Shown here: positions 9,145 to 23,857 of the stretch, in pieces | Layout of the letters: every line of letters begins with the position of its first letter | Numbering within the stretch: position 1 is the first letter of the stretch | Notes under the pieces: model-generated | Seen by the model: the letters and a program-made list of their open reading frames with translations, nothing else | The model's database searches: none | What the model was told of the DNA's origin: nothing | Made by a program: the position numbers and the translations under genes | NCBI GenBank assembly: GCA_041737595.1 | Contig: JBGSRK010000014.1 | Coordinates: 118 to 64,117 of the forward strand | DNA length: 64,000 nucleotides | Source of the DNA: Patescibacteria group bacterium | GTDB lineage: Bacteria > Patescibacteriota > CPR2 > UBA1875 | Direction: 5' to 3'

Positions 9145-9219
9145 TGGTTCGGGAGGAGGGATTCGAACCCCCGAATGCATGGACCAGAACCATGTGCCTT
9201 ACCACTTGGCGACTCCCGA
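9145..9219 (-). tRNA. tRNA-Gln, anticodon CTG, 75 nt, with the CCA end encoded.
   Basis: Reverse complement reads TCGGGAGTCGCCAAGTGGTAAGGCACATGGTTCTGGTCCATGCATTCGGGGGTTCGAATCCCTCCTCCCGAACCA. It has a perfect 7-bp acceptor stem, loop TTCTGGT, and T-loop TTCGAAT. Confidence 0.85.
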
Positions 9220-9465
9220 TTATAAATTATCAAATAACTTTTTTAATTTCTTACCACCTCTCAGAGTCTTCGAGTATTTTTCCCTTTTTAAAGCCTCGTC
9301 ATATGTTGTAAATGACTCAGAATAAATTAGAATTAATGGTCTTCTACTTTTGGTGGCAAATACGCGACCCATTTTATGGTCTAAAAGTCTTTTGGTCAAA
9401 TTTGAGGTGGAACCCTTGTATAGCTTTCCGTCTTTTTCGCTACGTAATACATAAAAGTGATTCAT
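9220..9465 (-). CDS. GIY-YIG nuclease-family protein of the UPF0213/COG2827 type. The start is taken at MNHFYV, and the stop codon directly abuts the tRNA-Gln 5' end.
   Basis: MNHFYVLRSEKDGKLYKGSTSNLTKRLLDHK...RRPLILIYSE...AL.REK matches the GIY-YIG consensus. The ORF 9220..9540 extends upstream through a tRNA-derived leader. Confidence 0.7.
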   Translation of the reverse strand: MNHFYVLRSEKDGKLYKGSTSNLTKRLLDHKMGRVFATKSRRPLILIYSESFTTYDEALKREKYSKTLRGGKKLKKLFDNL

Positions 9466-9480
9466 AGTCTCTCTTATCTT

Positions 9481-9534
9481 ACCACTTGCCTGCCCGAGAC
9501 GACACGTCTCGTGTCGGCCAGAGGCGACTCCCGA
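9481..9534 (-). pseudogene. Fragment of the tRNA-Gln 5' end. The acceptor 5' strand and D-arm, TCGGGAGTCGCC...CAAGTGGTAAG, are split by a 35-nt GC-rich insertion that contains the palindrome cgagacgacacgtctcg.
   Basis: Exact match of accacttg and ggcgactcccgat to the tRNA-Gln at 9201-9220. The palindrome lies at 9495-9511. Confidence 0.5.
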
Positions 9535-9595
9535 TTGCATATTTAGTATATGTTAAAAATAGATTCTGAATCAAGTTTAGAATTACAAATAACAT

Positions 9596-10070: not shown

Positions 10071-11501
10071 TTATTTTATTGTTTTGATTGCTTTTGAAAT
10101 TCGGCTTTCAGATTCTTCTTTTCCAAGAGCCCAGAGTAGTTCGGTGGGACTTGGTGATCTTTCTTCACCAGAAAGAGCGAAACGAACTGGCCAAAAAACA
10201 TCTCCATTTGAAAGATTATTCTCTTCAACTACTTTTTTTAACACATTTTCAAAATCTACAATACTCATCTCCTCCCACGTCACTAAAGTGAAGTAGGCAA
10301 GTGCTTTGGTTACGAGGTTGAGAGCTTTAATAGTATCTTCTTTATTAGATTTTTTGAAAATAAGTGATTTTGGGTCATATTTAGGTAAATTAATATAAAA
10401 ATCAGTATTTTCTAAAATATCAGATAATTTTGTGAGTCTGGTTTTTTCTATTTCTAAAATACGATCAAAATTAGAAAGAGTTAATATTTTTGCATCAGGA
10501 TACAATTCGTTTATAATTTTTTGCAATTTTTTTGTTTCTGTTTTTCTAATATATTGACCATTCATCCAATCAAGTCTTTTTAAATCAAAAACAGCTGGCG
10601 ATTTATTTATATCAGAAAGTTCAAATCTTTTTATAAGTTCATCTTTAGAAAAAAACTCATCTTCTGTTTTAGGGTTCCACCCTAAAAGTACTAAGAAATT
10701 AAGAAGTGCTTCAGGTAGATATCCTTTCTTTTTATAATCTACTACAGACGTGTCTCCATCCCTCTTAGAAAGCTTTTTACCTGATTCACCTATGGTTACT
10801 GGCATATGTGCAAAGCGTGGCACCTCCCAGCCTAGGGCTTCGTATATAGCAATATTTTTAGGGGTTGAGGGAATCCATTCTTCCCCACGGATAATATCTG
10901 TTACCCCGGAATCATGGTCATCTATAGCGGAGGCTAAAAAATATGTAGGCCAGCCATCAGATTTCATAAGTATCTGATCATCTGAAAGCGCATATTCAAG
11001 ACTCATTTTTCCCCGAACGGCATCATCCCAATTTGCTCTACCCTCTTCTGGCATGGCGAATCGAATAACATAAGGTGTATTATTTGCTTCTAAATCTGAA
11101 ATTTTTTCTTTAGATAATTTTCGACAGTGTTTATCATAACCAGGTGGGAGACTATTTGCTTCTTGAAATTCTCGAATATCCTTAAGTCTTTCTTTTGAAC
11201 AAAAACATTTATAAGCCTTCCCTTCAGAAACTAACTTTTCGGCATAATTTTTATGTATTTCTTTTCGGTTTGATTGATAGATTATTTCATCATCAAAATC
11301 TAACCCCATCCATTTTAATGAACTTTCAAATTCTAGAACTGCCCCTTCCACTAATCTTTCGCGGTCAGTGTCCTCAATTCTTAATAAAAATTTACCATTA
11401 TTGTGTTTTGCCCAAAGATATGAAAATAACGCAGTGCGCATTGCACCTACATGTAGGCCTCCTGTTGGACTTGGGGCAAATCTTGTTACAACTTTATTCA
11501 T
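10071..11501 (-). CDS. gltX: Glutamyl-tRNA synthetase.
   Basis: HIGH-class motif RFAPSPTGGLHVGAMRTALF and the KMSKS-like KLSKR motif. Length is 476 aa. Confidence 0.9.
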   Translation of the reverse strand: MNKVVTRFAPSPTGGLHVGAMRTALFSYLWAKHNNGKFLLRIEDTDRERLVEGAVLEFESSLKWMGLDFDDEIIYQSNRKEIHKNYAEKLVSEGKAYKCFCSKERLKDIREFQEANSLPPGYDKHCRKLSKEKISDLEANNTPYVIRFAMPEEGRANWDDAVRGKMSLEYALSDDQILMKSDGWPTYFLASAIDDHDSGVTDIIRGEEWIPSTPKNIAIYEALGWEVPRFAHMPVTIGESGKKLSKRDGDTSVVDYKKKGYLPEALLNFLVLLGWNPKTEDEFFSKDELIKRFELSDINKSPAVFDLKRLDWMNGQYIRKTETKKLQKIINELYPDAKILTLSNFDRILEIEKTRLTKLSDILENTDFYINLPKYDPKSLIFKKSNKEDTIKALNLVTKALAYFTLVTWEEMSIVDFENVLKKVVEENNLSNGDVFWPVRFALSGEERSPSPTELLWALGKEESESRISKAIKTIK

Positions 11502-16507: not shown

Positions 16508-17266
16508 TTATCCGAAGAGCCGGCAGTACAGAGCGTAACCTGTTATACCTAGTACCGCCAATCCTGCGATAAGAAGGAACATTCGTCCTTTTGCTCGCGC
16601 TTCTTGGGCGGCAAGATTGGAATAGTAGGCTTGTCCAGCGGATTCGGGGAAGTACTCATCAAGAAGCATCTCCTCTTCTAATGGACTCATAGTTCTGGAC
16701 TGCATGAACATCGGTGTTTCCTTCCCAGCCGGGTTGGCTAAAAGCAAAAACCACAGAACTTCAGTCAATACCTTGTAGCCACCACCTTGAGCAATGTTGC
16801 GGTTTGAATCCCCGCCCAACAGCTCATTAGACGAATCCAGCCATTTCTCCCGTTCTTCACGGAAGTAATAGCCACCGACAGCATTAGAGAACCGTCGTTC
16901 CCAATCGCTCCCACCTTCTCGCTTGCCAGCTAGATAAGCTAGAACGTCTTCTGCGACTTCGATGCCGTAAGGCATATTGTCGCGCATTCCCATGATGGAA
17001 AGACCACCCAGCTCCTCATGAGGCTTCTCCTGGAAAACTAACCTTTCTGCCTCGGATGGATAGAGCCTTTCCAGATTACGGATGTAGTCCTGGTAACGCT
17101 CCTCTTTGATCTTTGCCATACGGGCGTCGTCCTCGGGTCCATAACTAACGAGATACCTGGCTGTAAGTAGGCCATTCCAGTCAGCCATGGGGTTGATACA
17201 ATTGCACGTTCCTCCTTCTCCTCGGTTTACGAACGGACAACCGTTACACATCGAAAATCCCCACAT
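16508..17266 (-). CDS. Hypothetical protein (252 aa) with a Cys-rich N-terminus (CNGCP...CNC) and a C-terminal TM anchor. GC is about 52%. Likely horizontally acquired.
   Basis: GC-rich ORF. RBS aggagga upstream. A hairpin with T-tract lies downstream at 16436-16460. Confidence 0.55.
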   Translation of the reverse strand: MWGFSMCNGCPFVNRGEGGTCNCINPMADWNGLLTARYLVSYGPEDDARMAKIKEERYQDYIRNLERLYPSEAERLVFQEKPHEELGGLSIMGMRDNMPYGIEVAEDVLAYLAGKREGGSDWERRFSNAVGGYYFREEREKWLDSSNELLGGDSNRNIAQGGGYKVLTEVLWFLLLANPAGKETPMFMQSRTMSPLEEEMLLDEYFPESAGQAYYSNLAAQEARAKGRMFLLIAGLAVLGITGYALYCRLFG

Positions 17267-20011: not shown

Positions 20012-21402
20012 TCTAAATTATCTAAATATGGTTTAATAAAACTACTTCTAGATGGGTGTCTAAGTTTTAATAAAACCTTTGATTCTATTTGTCTTATTCT
20101 TTCTCGAGTAATTCCAAATATTTTTCCAATGTCATCATATGTATGAGTATCTTCTCCATTTAAACCATATCTAAGTTCTATTATTTTTTTTTGTTTATCC
20201 GTAAAATCGTTAAGTAATACATTTAAATCTTCTTTTAAGAGTTTTTTGATTACCAACTTAGCTGTATCCTCAGATAATAATTGTTCATCAACTTCTTCTG
20301 ATTCGACATCTAGTGGCTCTTCTGCCATATTTCTATAACTCTTACTTTTTGCAATTTCGAAGTCTCTAGTTGGTATGCCTTTAAATTTTCTAGTTTTATT
20401 ATCTTTAACTTCTTCTTTTATTGTTTCTAATCTAGCTCTTTCTTTATTTAAATTATCAATAAGTGGTATTAAATCACTAATTATAGACTTATATTCTTTA
20501 ATACGAAAGCTATTAGATAGTGCATTTCCAATAATAAGTTTATCCCTCCATCTGTTTATAATATCTGTGCAAGTCTTTTCGCGTTTTTCTCTTAATATAT
20601 CAAGTTTTCGTCTTGCTTTAGCTATCTCCTCTTTAACCTCAGCAGCTTCTCTTCTTTTTACAATAAAAGTTTTTTCTTTATCTGTTTTTAAATCTTTTAG
20701 TTTTTGTAATTTTTCTTGGTAATCTTTGAGGAGTATGTCCAGTTCTGCTTCAATTGAATTTTCTTCATCAAGAGAATCAGTATCTAAAATTTCTTGATAT
20801 AATTTAGATATATCATCTACATCAAGCTCTCCTAAATACGAACGTTTATTCCAAATTTCATAATTAAGTTTACGGGAAAGAACCTCGATTGCATTTTCCA
20901 AATCTTTTTCTAATATTAATAATTCTTTTTGTGCAGAAATTGTTGCATCGTGTTCTTGGACTTCATCAGATAAATTTTCATAATGTTCAATATTTATATC
21001 TGGATCTTTTTCAGTGTATCTTTTGAATGAATTCTTTATACTATAATAAATTTTAGAATATAAATTTAAATTATCTTCATTAATATTATCAAGTTCTTCT
21101 ACATATTCTCTGATTGCTTCAATTAATCCAGTAATTCCTAATTGTCTTAAATCTTCAACAAATTGAGCTTTTTCAGCATATTCTTCAACAAACTTGTCAA
21201 CTAAGGGTTCATATAAATAAATAAGACGATCAAGCGCCTCTTCGTTTCCAGCTTTTAACTCTTTTAATAAGGAAAATATAGTTTCTGAGTCTCTATAACT
21301 TCTTTCATTGCGTTTTTTTTGTGCTATAAAATCACTTTCGGTATTTTCTAATCCAAGATGTTCCATATACCAAAGTATATTAGTTAAAGTAAAAATAAAC
21401 AA
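20008..21402 (-). CDS. Atypical sigma-70-like protein. It has a region-2.1/2.2-like N-terminal part, a coiled-coil K/E-rich segment of about 250 aa, and a canonical region 4 HTH that ends in RHPSRS.
   Basis: C-terminal ELRYGL...TYDDIGKIFGITRERIRQIESKVLLKLRHPSRS closely matches RpoD region 4.2. The middle of the protein lacks regions 2.3-3. Confidence 0.6.
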   Translation of the reverse strand: MFIFTLTNILWYMEHLGLENTESDFIAQKKRNERSYRDSETIFSLLKELKAGNEEALDRLIYLYEPLVDKFVEEYAEKAQFVEDLRQLGITGLIEAIREYVEELDNINEDNLNLYSKIYYSIKNSFKRYTEKDPDINIEHYENLSDEVQEHDATISAQKELLILEKDLENAIEVLSRKLNYEIWNKRSYLGELDVDDISKLYQEILDTDSLDEENSIEAELDILLKDYQEKLQKLKDLKTDKEKTFIVKRREAAEVKEEIAKARRKLDILREKREKTCTDIINRWRDKLIIGNALSNSFRIKEYKSIISDLIPLIDNLNKERARLETIKEEVKDNKTRKFKGIPTRDFEIAKSKSYRNMAEEPLDVESEEVDEQLLSEDTAKLVIKKLLKEDLNVLLNDFTDKQKKIIELRYGLNGEDTHTYDDIGKIFGITRERIRQIESKVLLKLRHPSRSSFIKPYLDNLD

Positions 21403-21411
21403 TATTTAAAA

Positions 21412-21470
21412 AAAGAAAGACCCGCACTGTATGCGCGGGATCTCCCCTTATACATTAGTGCGGGTAGTGA
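21412..21470 (-). terminator. GC-rich hairpin terminator with U-tract at the 3' end of the high-GC operon 21479-22781. A closely related element lies at 22886-22945.
   Basis: acccgcact ... agtgcgggt 9-bp stem. On the minus strand it is followed by tctttcttttttt. Confidence 0.6.
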
Positions 21471-21478
21471 TTGAGGTG

Positions 21479-21841
21479 CTATGCAACCAGGGCTTCGTCT
21501 GGCAGCATCTTGATGGGTTTCTTCTCCCAGTGATCGCACTTAGGAGGTAGAACGAAGGTTGTGCAGGCTACACCTGGGCTCCTTGGGTTAAGGAGTAGAT
21601 AGTAGGTGTAACGTGAAAGCTGATGGTTCTTCCTTGTACGATCAAGGATCGTCTTTCTGACATTCTTGTGTCGCTTCCCCATATCGTGATGTGAAATAGC
21701 GACATGTACCTCCCGAACATCAGGTTTGTACAAGATAGTTGTCTTGACATTGATGTTTTGAATCTTCTGCTCCATTGTTGCGAGCATCTCCTCTGGCGAT
21801 TGCAAGAACAGCGCCTCCCCGAGTTGTGGATTTCCAGGCAT
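21479..21841 (-). CDS. Hypothetical protein (120 aa), high GC. It is the last gene of a four-gene operon.
   Basis: Its ATG directly follows the stop of the upstream small ORF. The overlapping alternative-frame ORF 21568..21921 has junk-like R/S/C composition. Confidence 0.5.
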   Translation of the reverse strand: MPGNPQLGEALFLQSPEEMLATMEQKIQNINVKTTILYKPDVREVHVAISHHDMGKRHKNVRKTILDRTRKNHQLSRYTYYLLLNPRSPGVACTTFVLPPKCDHWEKKPIKMLPDEALVA

Positions 21842-21940
21842 CTATCGTTTCTTACGTGGTTTAGTGGATGGAGGTGATTTGCCCTTCTTTTGTTTGGGTT
21901 TTTTGTTTTCACGACCTCCACGGTTTCTGGGATGTGCCAC
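21842..21940 (-). CDS. Lys/Arg-rich micro-protein (32 aa), VAHPRNRGGRENKKPKQKKGKSPPSTKPRKKR, with a GTG start.
   Basis: Strong RBS aaggagg 7 nt upstream of the GTG. The stop is immediately followed by the next ATG. Confidence 0.3.
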   Translation of the reverse strand: MAHPRNRGGRENKKPKQKKGKSPPSTKPRKKR

Positions 21941-21952
21941 TAGAGCACCTCC

Positions 21953-22330
21953 TTAGTCATACTCACTGCTTCTGATTTGATCGGCTTTCTCGGTTTCAAT
22001 CTCCCTTTTGCTGAGTATGCCCGACTTGTTGAGCAGTTCATAAGCATACTCGCCAATCAGATTAGATGCAACATCTTCAAGCGAGTTTAAGGGTGGTTTT
22101 TGATTGAGTCCATAATCCCTTATGTTCTCAATTGCAGAATCCTCTGCTTCGATTCCAGATTCCACCCGATCAATCCGCTCAATGAAGGATAGGAGATACA
22201 AACCTCCCTTATTTTCGACGCAGGCGGTCAGCATGATCATTTCAAGATCATAGTCCGAGTCCCCGATCATCTTTATGATATGGGTCATAATCTCGGTTAC
22301 TCTCCCTATTACCCATTCATTGACTTTCAT
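21953..22330 (-). CDS. Hypothetical acidic protein (125 aa), high GC.
   Basis: ORF that overlaps the upstream gene by 14 nt, suggesting translational coupling. Confidence 0.5.
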   Translation of the reverse strand: MKVNEWVIGRVTEIMTHIIKMIGDSDYDLEMIMLTACVENKGGLYLLSFIERIDRVESGIEAEDSAIENIRDYGLNQKPPLNSLEDVASNLIGEYAYELLNKSGILSKREIETEKADQIRSSEYD

Positions 22331-22781
22331 GTTCCCCCCTACTGTGTTTTGCCCTCTTGTGGATATTAGTGAAGTGTTCCAAGATCTTTTTAGAGACTAA
22401 AACGAGAAAATTATTAGTCTCTTTAAAGATGTCTGGATCGATAGCTTCACCAGCAATGAAGTCTTCGAGGGTTTCATGAAAATCAGTAATAGCATCGATT
22501 GGGTCTGGATAGTCCTCCTTGATTGCTTCGAGAACTTCGGAATACCAACCGATCTTCTTGGCGAGGAAGAAGCAAAGTGCCCCTTCATCTACTAGTAGGT
22601 CCTCTTCCAAGAGAAAAAGCCATTCGATGGTGTTTGATGTAGTAATAAGTATTTCGAGATGTTCGTCTACAATCTCATCTGCTGCACCACCGATAATGCG
22701 GGCCATTTCGAGGACCGCAAAGCCACTCTCTATATCACGTACGATTGATGAGGAAACGGTAACTGTTACATCGCTGTACAT
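22317..22781 (-). CDS. Hypothetical acidic protein (154 aa), high GC. First gene of the operon.
   Basis: RBS gaggtgagg upstream. An AT-rich promoter-like region lies at 22790-22850. Confidence 0.5.
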   Translation of the reverse strand: MYSDVTVTVSSSIVRDIESGFAVLEMARIIGGAADEIVDEHLEILITTSNTIEWLFLLEEDLLVDEGALCFFLAKKIGWYSEVLEAIKEDYPDPIDAITDFHETLEDFIAGEAIDPDIFKETNNFLVLVSKKILEHFTNIHKRAKHSRGEHESQ

Positions 22782-22885
22782 AGTACCTCACCTCATTTCG
22801 TATCATTGGAAGTTGGGTCTATTTTATTACAAAATATAAAAGAAGCAAGGGATACATATAAATATATTTAAATATTAGTTAGTAA

Positions 22886-22945
22886 ACTATTTAAGAAAGA
22901 CCCGCACGTGTGCGAGTCAATCTTAATCGCTTAGTGCGGGCTAGA
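22886..22945 (-). terminator. GC-rich hairpin terminator of the EEP gene. The stop codon is embedded in the stem. It shares tatttaa-gaaagacccgcac ... ttagtgcggg with 21412-21470.
   Basis: cccgcac...gtgcggg stem plus a ccgccactaatgatggcgg hairpin. On the minus strand it is followed by tctttctt. Confidence 0.55.
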
Positions 22946-23857
22946 ATCCGCCATCATTAGTGGCGGGAATGGGTATTCGAGCGTTGTAACAACTGGATAA
23001 TGGTCAGATGGGTATCTACCAGAACGACTGTATTTGATTATCTGCCCACCAGAGACCTTCCATTCTGGTGATGCAAATATCATGTCGATTCGTGGTCCGC
23101 CAGAACCAGTAAAACCATGGAATGTTCCAATGGGTTTATCTGATTCTTCGATACAATCACGAAGTAGGTCGAAATTTCTTGCAGACTCGACCGAGTTACT
23201 TCTAAGAACGTTGAAGGTTGATGAATCTGCTGATTCATTGAAGTCTCCGCCAAGAATAACAAGATTACCGTTGTTGTTATGCACCCAACTCGCGAGCATT
23301 CTGACTGACTCTTTTCGCGATTCACTTGATTCATGGTCAAGATGAGTTGAGGCAACTGCAATTGGTTGTGATTGAAATTCATCCCACAGCGTTAGAGAAG
23401 TGTAGCAACGAGGTATTCTATTCCCCCAACTTACTGATTCAGTAAGTTTAGGAGCGTTTGAAAACCAGAGTCTTTCCGTTGTGTTGACCTGAACTCTAAA
23501 TCGGTCTTCACGAAAGAAAATAACTGGGTATCCTCGCCATTGCTTCCCAATACCGGCTGTTGCGACTCGGTAACCTAGAACTTTTGATTTCAGGTAACTG
23601 AGTTGCATCGGGGTTGCTTCTTGAATCATGATGATGTCTGGGGCTACTTCTTTGATGACATCAACGACCATTGTTCTCCTGAAAAGCCAAGAGTCTAATC
23701 CGTCAAAAGCCATACTTGTTCTGATATTAAAGCTCATGACGATAAGCCCATCTCTTTCGGGCCAGACCATCGGTTCAGTTCCTTGTTGTATTCCACTCAA
23801 AGGTACTACTGCAATAAGCAGCAATACTATGGCTAAAAGCCTTAGTTTCCTGCTCAT
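22931..23857 (-). CDS. Secreted endonuclease/exonuclease/phosphatase (EEP) family protein, GC about 50%.
   Basis: Signal peptide MSRKLRLLAIVLLLIAVVPLSG. EEP motifs: IMIQE, GGDFN, and SDHYPV at the C-terminus. Confidence 0.75.
   Translation of the reverse strand: MSRKLRLLAIVLLLIAVVPLSGIQQGTEPMVWPERDGLIVMSFNIRTSMAFDGLDSWLFRRTMVVDVIKEVAPDIIMIQEATPMQLSYLKSKVLGYRVATAGIGKQWRGYPVIFFREDRFRVQVNTTERLWFSNAPKLTESVSWGNRIPRCYTSLTLWDEFQSQPIAVASTHLDHESSESRKESVRMLASWVHNNNGNLVILGGDFNESADSSTFNVLRSNSVESARNFDLLRDCIEESDKPIGTFHGFTGSGGPRIDMIFASPEWKVSGGQIIKYSRSGRYPSDHYPVVTTLEYPFPPLMMADSSPH

Follow-up and report, generated by a model that had tools for sequence, protein, structure and literature searches.

Four consecutive open reading frames (ORFs), here called A, B, C and D, occupy positions 22781 to 21479 on the minus strand of the window, the 64,000-nucleotide stretch of contig JBGSRK010000014.1 (assembly GCA_041737595.1) from a Patescibacteria group bacterium of the CPR2 lineage that was analysed in this work. 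They constitute one unit and are a genuine, tightly organised and self-contained operon: the genes are real, co-oriented, co-conserved and under purifying selection, their base composition is foreign, and a promoter and a terminator are found at their ends. None of the four protein families has been characterised, and three of the families were found nowhere but at three metagenomic loci. Gene A (22317-22781) encodes a protein of 154 amino acids (aa) with an isoelectric point (pI) of 4.4 and a net charge of about -20, and gene B (21953-22330) a protein of 125 aa, with a pI of 4.5 and a net charge of about -12. Gene C (21842-21940) starts with GTG and encodes 32 aa (pI 12, net charge about +12), while gene D (21479-21841), when counted from its ATG, encodes 120 aa (pI 9.5, net charge +6 to +7). 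The ORFs, their sizes, the overlap of A with B, the GTG start and the AAGGAGG ribosome-binding site listed in a preliminary description of this DNA were all recovered on the minus strand. The same holds for the tight organisation and for the acidic, acidic, polybasic and basic succession of charges (-20, -12, +12 and +7). Inspection of the four protein sequences gave no evidence of a signal peptide or of a hydrophobic segment.

The signals around the four genes are those expected of one transcript. A and B overlap by 14 nucleotides (22317-22330). A is preceded by the Shine-Dalgarno (SD) sequence GAGGTGAGG (22794..22786) and B by a G-run, whereas the SD of C, AAGGAGG (21954..21948), lies 7 nucleotides upstream of the GTG and overlaps the stop codon of B. 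Upstream of A, a sigma-70-type promoter is predicted on the minus strand (22821..22848), with a -35 box TTGCTT (22848..22843) separated by a 16-nucleotide spacer from a -10 box TAAAAT (22826..22821). The corresponding block, ..TTG.TT..(16)..TAATAAAATAGAC.., can be aligned and is kept upstream of A in the window and in two related contigs, L002 and L003, as is the SD sequence, in agreement with the ribosome-binding site and promoter that had been placed before A in the preliminary description. From this conservation we infer that the block has promoter activity. Downstream of D, the terminator scan and the sequence itself revealed an intrinsic terminator on the minus strand (21421..21439), consisting of the hairpin CCCGCGC-ATACA-GTGCGGG followed by the T-rich tail TCTTTCTTTTTTT. 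An inverted-repeat search revealed a further hairpin (22384-22430, minus strand) within the 3' part of the A ORF, about 55 nucleotides before the start of B, with 17-nucleotide arms and a 13-nucleotide loop. The window gave a folding z-score of -3.75 for this hairpin and the corresponding position of L002 (L002:1784-1858) one of -5.41, and reading the arm sequences by eye showed three positions altered on both arms. The hairpin is not present in L003 (z about 0). It could be an element for mRNA processing, stability or regulation.

The operon was compared with other metagenomic sequences. Over 8,382 bases, the window does not differ from an independent Logan assembly (L001). Three independent contigs keep the order A-B-(C)-D, namely the window, L002, where the genes follow each other as endonuclease/exonuclease/phosphatase (EEP)-family gene, 47-aa ORF, A, B, D, and L003, where the order is SdrD-like gene, A, B, C, D. 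The co-occurrence elsewhere for which the preliminary description had proposed to search was thus found for A, B and D on two other contigs, and for C on L003 only. B, C and D are confined to these three loci, C being found in two of them. Synonymous divergence (dS) among the three operon loci is saturated (1 or more). Between the window and L003, identity is 30% for B, 53% for D and 56% for A, compared with 78% for the flanking SdrD-like gene. The ratio of non-synonymous to synonymous divergence (dN/dS) is 0.14-0.21 for A and D, and 0.14-0.18 for D itself. B evolves fastest among the operon members (dN 0.5-0.9); it is 46% identical to its L002 counterpart, and the A/B junction of L002 is an ATGA overlap. 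A database of 5.8 billion sequences clustered at 90% identity, which represents about 15 billion proteins, contains only three B sequences, and only D itself for D. Judged from these comparisons, all four ORFs look translated. The preliminary description had named homology to ordinary enzymes, or frames that are not expressed, as findings that would remove its interest; no domain or enzyme-family match was found, and the selection signals (dN/dS and the codons of C) fit translation.

Gene C appears from these data to be a clear case of a polybasic micro-protein gene that is conserved and translated and that standard gene callers skip. Lysine and arginine account for 14 of its 32 residues (about 44%), and the remainder is rich in proline, serine and glycine, with no hydrophobic core. 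The gene set of the public assembly lists the 154-, 125- and 120-aa genes and leaves C uncalled. In L003, a homologous ORF of 31 aa is present at the same place, with matching SD sequence, GTG start and TAG stop; read from the GTG, the two sequences are VAHSKNRGSKEAKKPKRKKGKSPPSSTSKKR (L003) and VAHPRNRGGRENKKPKQKKGKSPPSTKPRKKR (window). Over 32 aligned codons, 10 were identical, 13 differed synonymously and 9 non-synonymously, the latter being mostly Arg/Lys or Ser/Thr swaps, some of which need two or three base changes. The differences were distributed over the first, second and third codon positions as 9/5/18. This pattern indicates that C is a translated peptide under purifying selection and not a conserved nucleotide element. 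C is not present in L002, the nearer relative of the window for A, B and D. The simplest history would be that C is ancestral and was then lost in L002, a loss which implies that C is dispensable.

C overlaps an alternative frame of 117 aa (21568-21921), and the preliminary description had concluded that one of the two calls must be wrong. The codon comparison, the L002 sequence and the base composition by codon position all designate C as the correct call and the 117-aa frame as spurious. The latter is rich in arginine, serine and cysteine, a composition typical of off-frame translation. Its G+C content is lower at first (0.37) than at second (0.47) codon positions, which is not coding-like, as against 0.55 and 0.35 for D. 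The frame is interrupted in L002, and since C and D are in different frames in L003, it cannot be continuous there either. The 117-aa frame was therefore rejected as a gene.

The start of D was also reconsidered. In the window, C and D share a reading frame and the TAG of C directly abuts an ATG (21841). This junction, reported in the preliminary description as tagATG, is present as described, but it is not the conserved start of D. An internal TTG at 21805, 8 nucleotides downstream of the SD sequence GGGGAGG (21820..21814), would give a protein of 108 aa, and the D homologues of L002 and L003, both truncated, start at the aligned TTG behind an SD of their own. On this alignment, the most likely start of D is the conserved TTG at 21805 rather than the ATG at 21841, which may give a minor reinitiation product. 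The spacer between the C stop and the conserved TTG is 36 nucleotides long in the window and 35 in L003, indicating that the common frame of C and D in the window is coincidental. Readings of the His-rich core of D as HicA-, HNH-, 2H-phosphoesterase- or HUH-like, judged by sequence inspection only, were rejected: neither L002 nor L003 keeps the motifs, and the readings have no support from any profile.

We searched for relatives of the four proteins in sequence and domain databases. No match was found in Pfam, PHROGs, PADLOC or NCBIfam for A to D, for the 117-aa frame, for 12 members of the A family or for the three D sequences, as anticipated in the preliminary description, which had recognised no domain in any of the four. 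D gave no match in these databases or among PDB sequences even at E values up to 10. When PDB sequences were searched with profiles of A, B and D and with peptide C, only noise was obtained, the best scores being 8qkh_S for B (E = 0.022) and a nuclear cap-binding protein for A (E = 0.055), and C matched no PDB chain. In PADLOC, nothing was significant for A to D or for the neighbouring EEP-family protein, the best score (Cas3b, E = 0.019, 11.5 bits) being noise. No relative of A, B or D was found in IMG/VR or among INPHARED phages (50,697 phage records, searched by tblastn/blastn), none of A or D in JGI metagenome contigs, none of A in GTDB species genomes, and none of D in PLSDB (72,556 plasmids), where A and B were not searched.

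Unlike B, C and D, gene A belongs to a wider, though rare, family. Two homologues, P0003 (76% identity) and P0004 (56%), are located on the short contigs L002 and L003 of other samples, and a profile search delineated a family of 12 clusters among 1.84 billion representatives, none of which has a Pfam match. The AlphaFold2 model of A, built from 12 sequences, was of high confidence (pLDDT 89, pTM 0.83) and all-helical, with seven helices. Foldseek searches of PDB and BFVD with this model returned nothing at E <=0.001 and only generic helical or four-helix bundles (best TMq 0.44 in PDB and 0.49 in BFVD). The fold check called for in the preliminary description thus revealed, for A, no match to a known fold. 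The positions conserved in the family are mostly hydrophobic, a feature more in keeping with a binding or scaffold role than with an enzyme. A and B are not paralogues, as no BLASTP alignment was obtained and hhalign gave a probability of 0.1%.

In distant genomes, A is either solitary or adjoins other, unrelated small orphan genes, of 108 aa in L087, 143 aa in L086, 68 and 120 aa in L089 and L090, and 67 aa in L091. Hidden Markov models of B and D found no match in these distant A loci (L086, L087, L089-L091). Since different small orphan genes pair with A elsewhere, A would be a conserved component with variable partners. The order A - x - DUF6512 is common to L087 and L091, with 42% identity between the two loci for DUF6512 and 29% for A. 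Genes for oxidative-stress and protein-repair functions, namely desulfoferrodoxin (SOR), PCMT, MsrA, MsrB and HtrA, are present around distant A genes, and TspO adjoins A in L085. These data indicate that the A family is inherited vertically, at least in part, and that A predates the operon, B, C and D being a recent clade-specific addition. We also observed that the 108-aa orphan of L087 (L087:5580-5906), located just 5' of the A homologue and rich in G+C at third codon positions (GC3), ends in a polybasic tail, ..KPGILKKKHKRPAKS, reminiscent of C; homology between this protein and C was not detectable.

The base composition of the operon sets it apart from its host. The preliminary description of a high-GC operon is valid relative to the host only: the G+C content of the operon is 0.43-0.48, as compared with 0.32 for the window (and 32% for the host genome) and 0.27-0.33 for the flanking genes. 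GC3 is 0.43-0.55 for A, B and D and 0.33 for C, whereas host genes in the window range from 0.13 to 0.25 (rpL9 0.14, MreB 0.16), and 57 of the 66 window ORFs of at least 90 aa have a GC3 of 0.25 or less. Enrichment in G and C was observed in every codon family of the operon; CTC and CTG represent 47% of its leucine codons (6% in host genes) and AAG 57% of its lysine codons (14% in host genes). As every codon family is shifted, the bias is not driven by tRNA-dependent translational selection, a cause further excluded by the low GC3 of the host L9 and MreB genes (0.14-0.16). A structured RNA gene was also rejected as the cause of the high G+C content, no Rfam match and no tandem repeat being found.

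The same anomaly was found in the relatives. In L003, GC3 is 0.54-0.82 for A to D as against 0.22 for the SdrD-like gene. We compared the GC3 of A with that of its neighbours wherever neighbouring host genes could be measured, and A was higher in every such locus: 0.54 versus about 0.32 in L087, 0.53 versus about 0.35 in L085, 0.69 versus 0.30 in L086, 0.48 versus 0.31 in L084 and 0.67 versus about 0.4 in L091. Several of the orphan genes adjoining A in other genomes are also GC3-rich. With dS at saturation between the three operon loci, one old transfer cannot account for the high GC3; the genes must either be imported again and again from a source richer in G+C, or have their composition maintained. 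Other genes with a GC3 far above that of the host, mostly small and without Pfam match, are scattered in these Patescibacteria genomes. In the window they were observed on the minus strand at 404-1342, 16508-17266 and 22931-23857, examples being a 312-aa ORF (GC 0.59, GC3 0.78) and a 252-aa ORF (GC3 0.51), and elsewhere at the L087 orphan position given above, at L087:8218-8583 and 10366-10734, at L086:66-497 and at L091:199-2477.

The chromosomal neighbourhood of the operon comprises genes for GluRS, a P-type ATPase, PIF1, MurA, MreB, an SdrD/SpaA-like surface protein and a NYN protein. MreB shares 89% identity with its counterpart in Patescibacteria group bacterium STE_72 and 77% with the one in CPR2 GW2011_GWC2_39_35, and the proteins neighbouring the operon are singletons at 90% identity. 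Upstream of the operon, and outside it, lies an EEP-family gene (22931..23857, minus strand; 308 aa, Pfam PF03372, E = 1.2e-18) with its own terminator. Its G+C content (0.44) and GC3 (0.37) make it one compositional island with the operon. It adjoins A in L002 (64% identity) and is missing from L003, in which A comes immediately after the SdrD-like gene. The next gene downstream of the operon belongs to the sigma-70 family, as judged from a Pfam match to region 4; no sigma gene was found beside A in any other A locus examined. The promoter-like sequence TTGTTT-17-TATACT is located about 7 nucleotides before the ATG of this gene at 21366, with no SD (21340-21420, minus strand), which suggests a leaderless mRNA or a dependence on read-through from the operon. 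An alternative TTG start at 21402 is probably spurious, given the public gene call of 452 aa. Farther away, a small, free-standing GIY-YIG ORF of 106 aa (9220-9540, minus strand; Pfam E = 5.9e-14, GC3 0.37) abuts tRNA-Gln (9145-9219).

A direct repeat of about 55 nucleotides brackets the operon. Its downstream copy (21413..21464, minus strand) contains the exact blocks CCCGCACTAA ... GTGCGGGTCTTTCTT, and its upstream copy (22893..22940, minus strand) takes in the final codons of the EEP gene together with its stop and terminator. Within the 64 kb of the window, two occurrences of the 15-mer and two of the 10-mer of the repeat were found, all at the operon flanks, and the same 15-mer is present 3' of the EEP gene in L002. 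The two copies are terminator hairpins without a recognisable attC core, and no integrase was detected among the scanned neighbours, the whole window not having been scanned for intI. No recombinase was found at the operon locus. In L002, an insert of about 530 nucleotides (L002:850-1380) lies between the EEP terminator and the A promoter. It contains the 47-aa ORF (961-1104), preceded by a strong SD, then about 230 nucleotides of non-coding DNA that end in a terminator-like hairpin (about 1335-1368), and has no Rfam match. With the EEP gene, C and the 47-aa unit varying between related contigs, the locus looks like a small hot spot of gene gain and loss.

The data support an autonomous and cytoplasmic module of four genes, foreign in base composition, that resides in a Patescibacteria chromosome. 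As the most economical reading of its function, tentative and perhaps wrong, we propose that the operon works by charge neutralisation, in the manner of a toxin-antitoxin or nucleic-acid-mimic system. The basic protein D would bind RNA, DNA or a nucleic-acid-handling machine, assisted where present by the disordered polybasic C, and A and B, both acidic, would act on D in stoichiometric amounts, by sequestration or regulation. Fixed proportions of the four products would be ensured by the overlap of A with B and by the SD sequences that lead C and D. B would be the lineage-specific, fast-evolving partner and A the older, helical-bundle anchor. We thus infer the binding of acidic to basic partners, the nucleic-acid binding and any effect on growth. 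The reading draws on the anatomy of a single transcript (conserved promoter, SD sequences, A/B overlap and terminator), on the A-B-(C)-D order kept in three contigs together with the opposite charges, and on the evolutionary rates, fast for the antitoxin-like B and slower for the putative effector D. It also draws on the variable partners of A, the foreign GC3, the bracketing repeat, the variable content of the locus and its patchy distribution. A conflict-type module is plausible given the foreign codons, the direct repeats, the variable partners and the fast evolution.

Like type II or tripartite toxin-antitoxin systems, the operon is made of small, co-oriented and translationally coupled genes with a single promoter and a terminator, its acidic partners precede a basic protein of about 100 aa, it is patchy and of foreign composition, and its putative neutraliser B evolves fast. 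Unlike them, it has four genes, including a polybasic micro-protein, none of its proteins matches a toxin or antitoxin family (RelE/ParE, MazF/CcdB, VapC, HicA, Doc, GNAT and Zeta in the case of D), and A is also found alone in conserved chromosomal synteny. A and B are also comparable to acidic nucleic-acid mimics of the Ocr/ArdA type, being small, very acidic (pI 4.1-4.5), cytoplasmic, outside any enzyme family and on foreign DNA. They differ from Ocr and ArdA by the absence of homology or fold match and of a phage or plasmid context; moreover, the model of A predicts a compact helical bundle and not, as far as can be judged, an elongated DNA-shaped dimer. A could also be likened to helical-bundle anti-sigma proteins such as Rsd and AsiA, as it is acidic, all-helical and about 150 aa long and its operon is directly upstream of a sigma-70-family gene. 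Neither protein, however, is among the fold matches of A, and A is not beside a sigma gene at the other loci examined.

Several results weigh against the neutralisation reading. No operon protein has homology to a toxin, antitoxin, defence or anti-defence family. Type II antitoxins normally carry a DNA-binding domain, and neither A nor B matches a DNA-binding family (HTH, RHH, AbrB, Phd/YefM); nor is an operator palindrome conserved at the promoter. C is dispensable, as it is absent from L002, and D could not be modelled usefully, its single-sequence AlphaFold2 model being of very low confidence (pLDDT 37) and unusable. No integrase, transposase or phage gene is adjacent among the neighbours scanned (Pfam and neighbourhood scan). 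Finally, A stands alone in several genomes, in synteny with DUF6512 and SOR, PCMT and MsrA/B, which suggests a vertically inherited cellular function; a cellular role would account just as well for the synteny with stress genes. The preliminary description had seen in the operon a toxin-immunity, anti-defence or phage-derived module; as such, this proposal was not supported, in view of the lack of any PADLOC, PHROG, phage or IMG/VR match and of an adjacent phage gene, and of the stand-alone, chromosomal position of distant A genes in synteny with housekeeping and stress genes.

It is unlikely, in our estimation, that the operon encodes an accessory complex of housekeeping type, in which C and D would be lineage-specific basic proteins associated with nucleic acids, the ribosome or the nucleoid, and the acidic A and B would serve them as chaperones or regulators, with a possible link to stress responses. 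The A family is chromosomal, keeps the A - x - DUF6512 synteny across divergent genomes and lies near SOR, PCMT, MsrA/MsrB, HtrA and TspO; the operon itself is just upstream of a sigma-70-family gene, in a neighbourhood of core genes (GluRS, MreB, MurA), and purifying selection acts on all four ORFs. Small size and a polybasic character are frequent among clade-specific ribosomal and chromatin proteins. The composition of C is like that of the small polybasic ribosomal proteins Thx, bS22 and bL37 and of SPKK-type DNA-binding tails, with which it shares a length of 31-32 aa, a Lys+Arg content of about 44%, a richness in Pro, Ser and Gly and the lack of a hydrophobic core. In contrast to Thx, bS22 and bL37, it is found in two of three related loci, in an orphan operon rather than among ribosomal genes, and has no PDB match. 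The occurrence of B, C and D at three loci among about 15 billion proteins, with C missing from one, is too sporadic for a core function. In addition, the codon composition of the operon is unlike that of the host ribosomal protein and MreB genes, and its proteins evolve faster than the neighbouring surface protein.

Alternatively, the operon may have no joint mechanism, the four genes being unrelated lineage-specific orphans co-transcribed by chance, with an incidental charge pattern. CPR (Candidate Phyla Radiation) genomes are rich in small hypothetical genes, most genomes with A lack B, C and D, and C is dispensable, all of which would be expected if this were so. We nevertheless consider it improbable, for the A-B-(C)-D order and the translational coupling are kept where synonymous sites are saturated, and the anomalous composition is common to all four genes.

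A mobile origin deserves consideration in view of the base composition and the repeats, although we find it quite doubtful. The operon would then be a cassette or islet cargo from a GC-richer donor pool, for instance an unsampled CPR phage or plasmid, with an anti-defence or DNA-mimic role: the acidic A and B would mimic nucleic acid and block nucleases of the host or of competitors, and C and D would be DNA-binding accessories. The EEP gene and the operon form a compositional island of 2.4 kb in a low-GC3 genome, direct repeats are found at both operon ends, and the EEP gene, the 47-aa ORF and C are present or absent at the same spot in the manner of cassettes. The high GC3 in three lineages despite saturated dS also fits repeated import, and many islands and tracts of horizontal gene transfer have been described in Patescibacteria genomes, representing up to 13% of genome length (PMC12455944). 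On the other hand, the phage, metagenome and plasmid searches were negative (A, B and D in IMG/VR and INPHARED, A and D in JGI contigs, D in PLSDB), and no integrase, transposase or phage structural gene is nearby. A-family homologues are absent from GC-richer, well-sampled bacteria, and the A-DUF6512 synteny speaks for vertical descent. Lastly, it is extremely unlikely that C and D form one protein of 153 aa through read-through or recoding of the TAG, or that D is a pseudogene broken by this nonsense codon: the two share a frame in the window, parted by the TAG alone, and the strongest SD precedes C, but the C of L003 also ends with TAG and is in another frame than D, D has its own conserved SD and TTG (also in L002, which has no C), the independent Logan assembly is identical over 8.4 kb, and TAG, which ends 12 of the 66 window ORFs, is an ordinary stop in this host.

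Patescibacteria (CPR) live as ultra-small episymbionts, and about one in two of their genes lacks an assigned function. A small hypothetical operon in such a genome is unsurprising in itself; the interest of this one resides in its conserved polybasic micro-protein and in the persistent GC3 anomaly of the A family. The analysis defines a rare family of acidic helical-bundle proteins, whose model is of high confidence and has no significant counterpart among the folds of PDB and BFVD. It also reveals a reproducible compositional signature, A-family genes and their adjoining orphans being GC3-rich in every genome examined, which is explained neither by a simple one-off transfer nor by translational selection. 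Going further, we would suggest with little confidence that the A family marks an undescribed, Patescibacteria-specific class of small-gene modules, in which a conserved acidic helical anchor is combined with small interchangeable partners (in this operon an acidic protein, a polybasic micro-protein and a basic protein), all written in G+C-rich codons unlike those of the host, even where synonymous sites are saturated. If so, a hidden, unsampled mobile pool (CPR phage, plasmid or a new conflict system) would re-seed these loci repeatedly or, alternatively, a selective constraint would act on mRNA composition through a mechanism that is not known. Should the operon be toxin-antitoxin-like or a nucleic-acid mimic, it would represent a new system in a phylum believed to contain few of this kind; otherwise, it would still provide a tractable set of four proteins for expression and interaction work.

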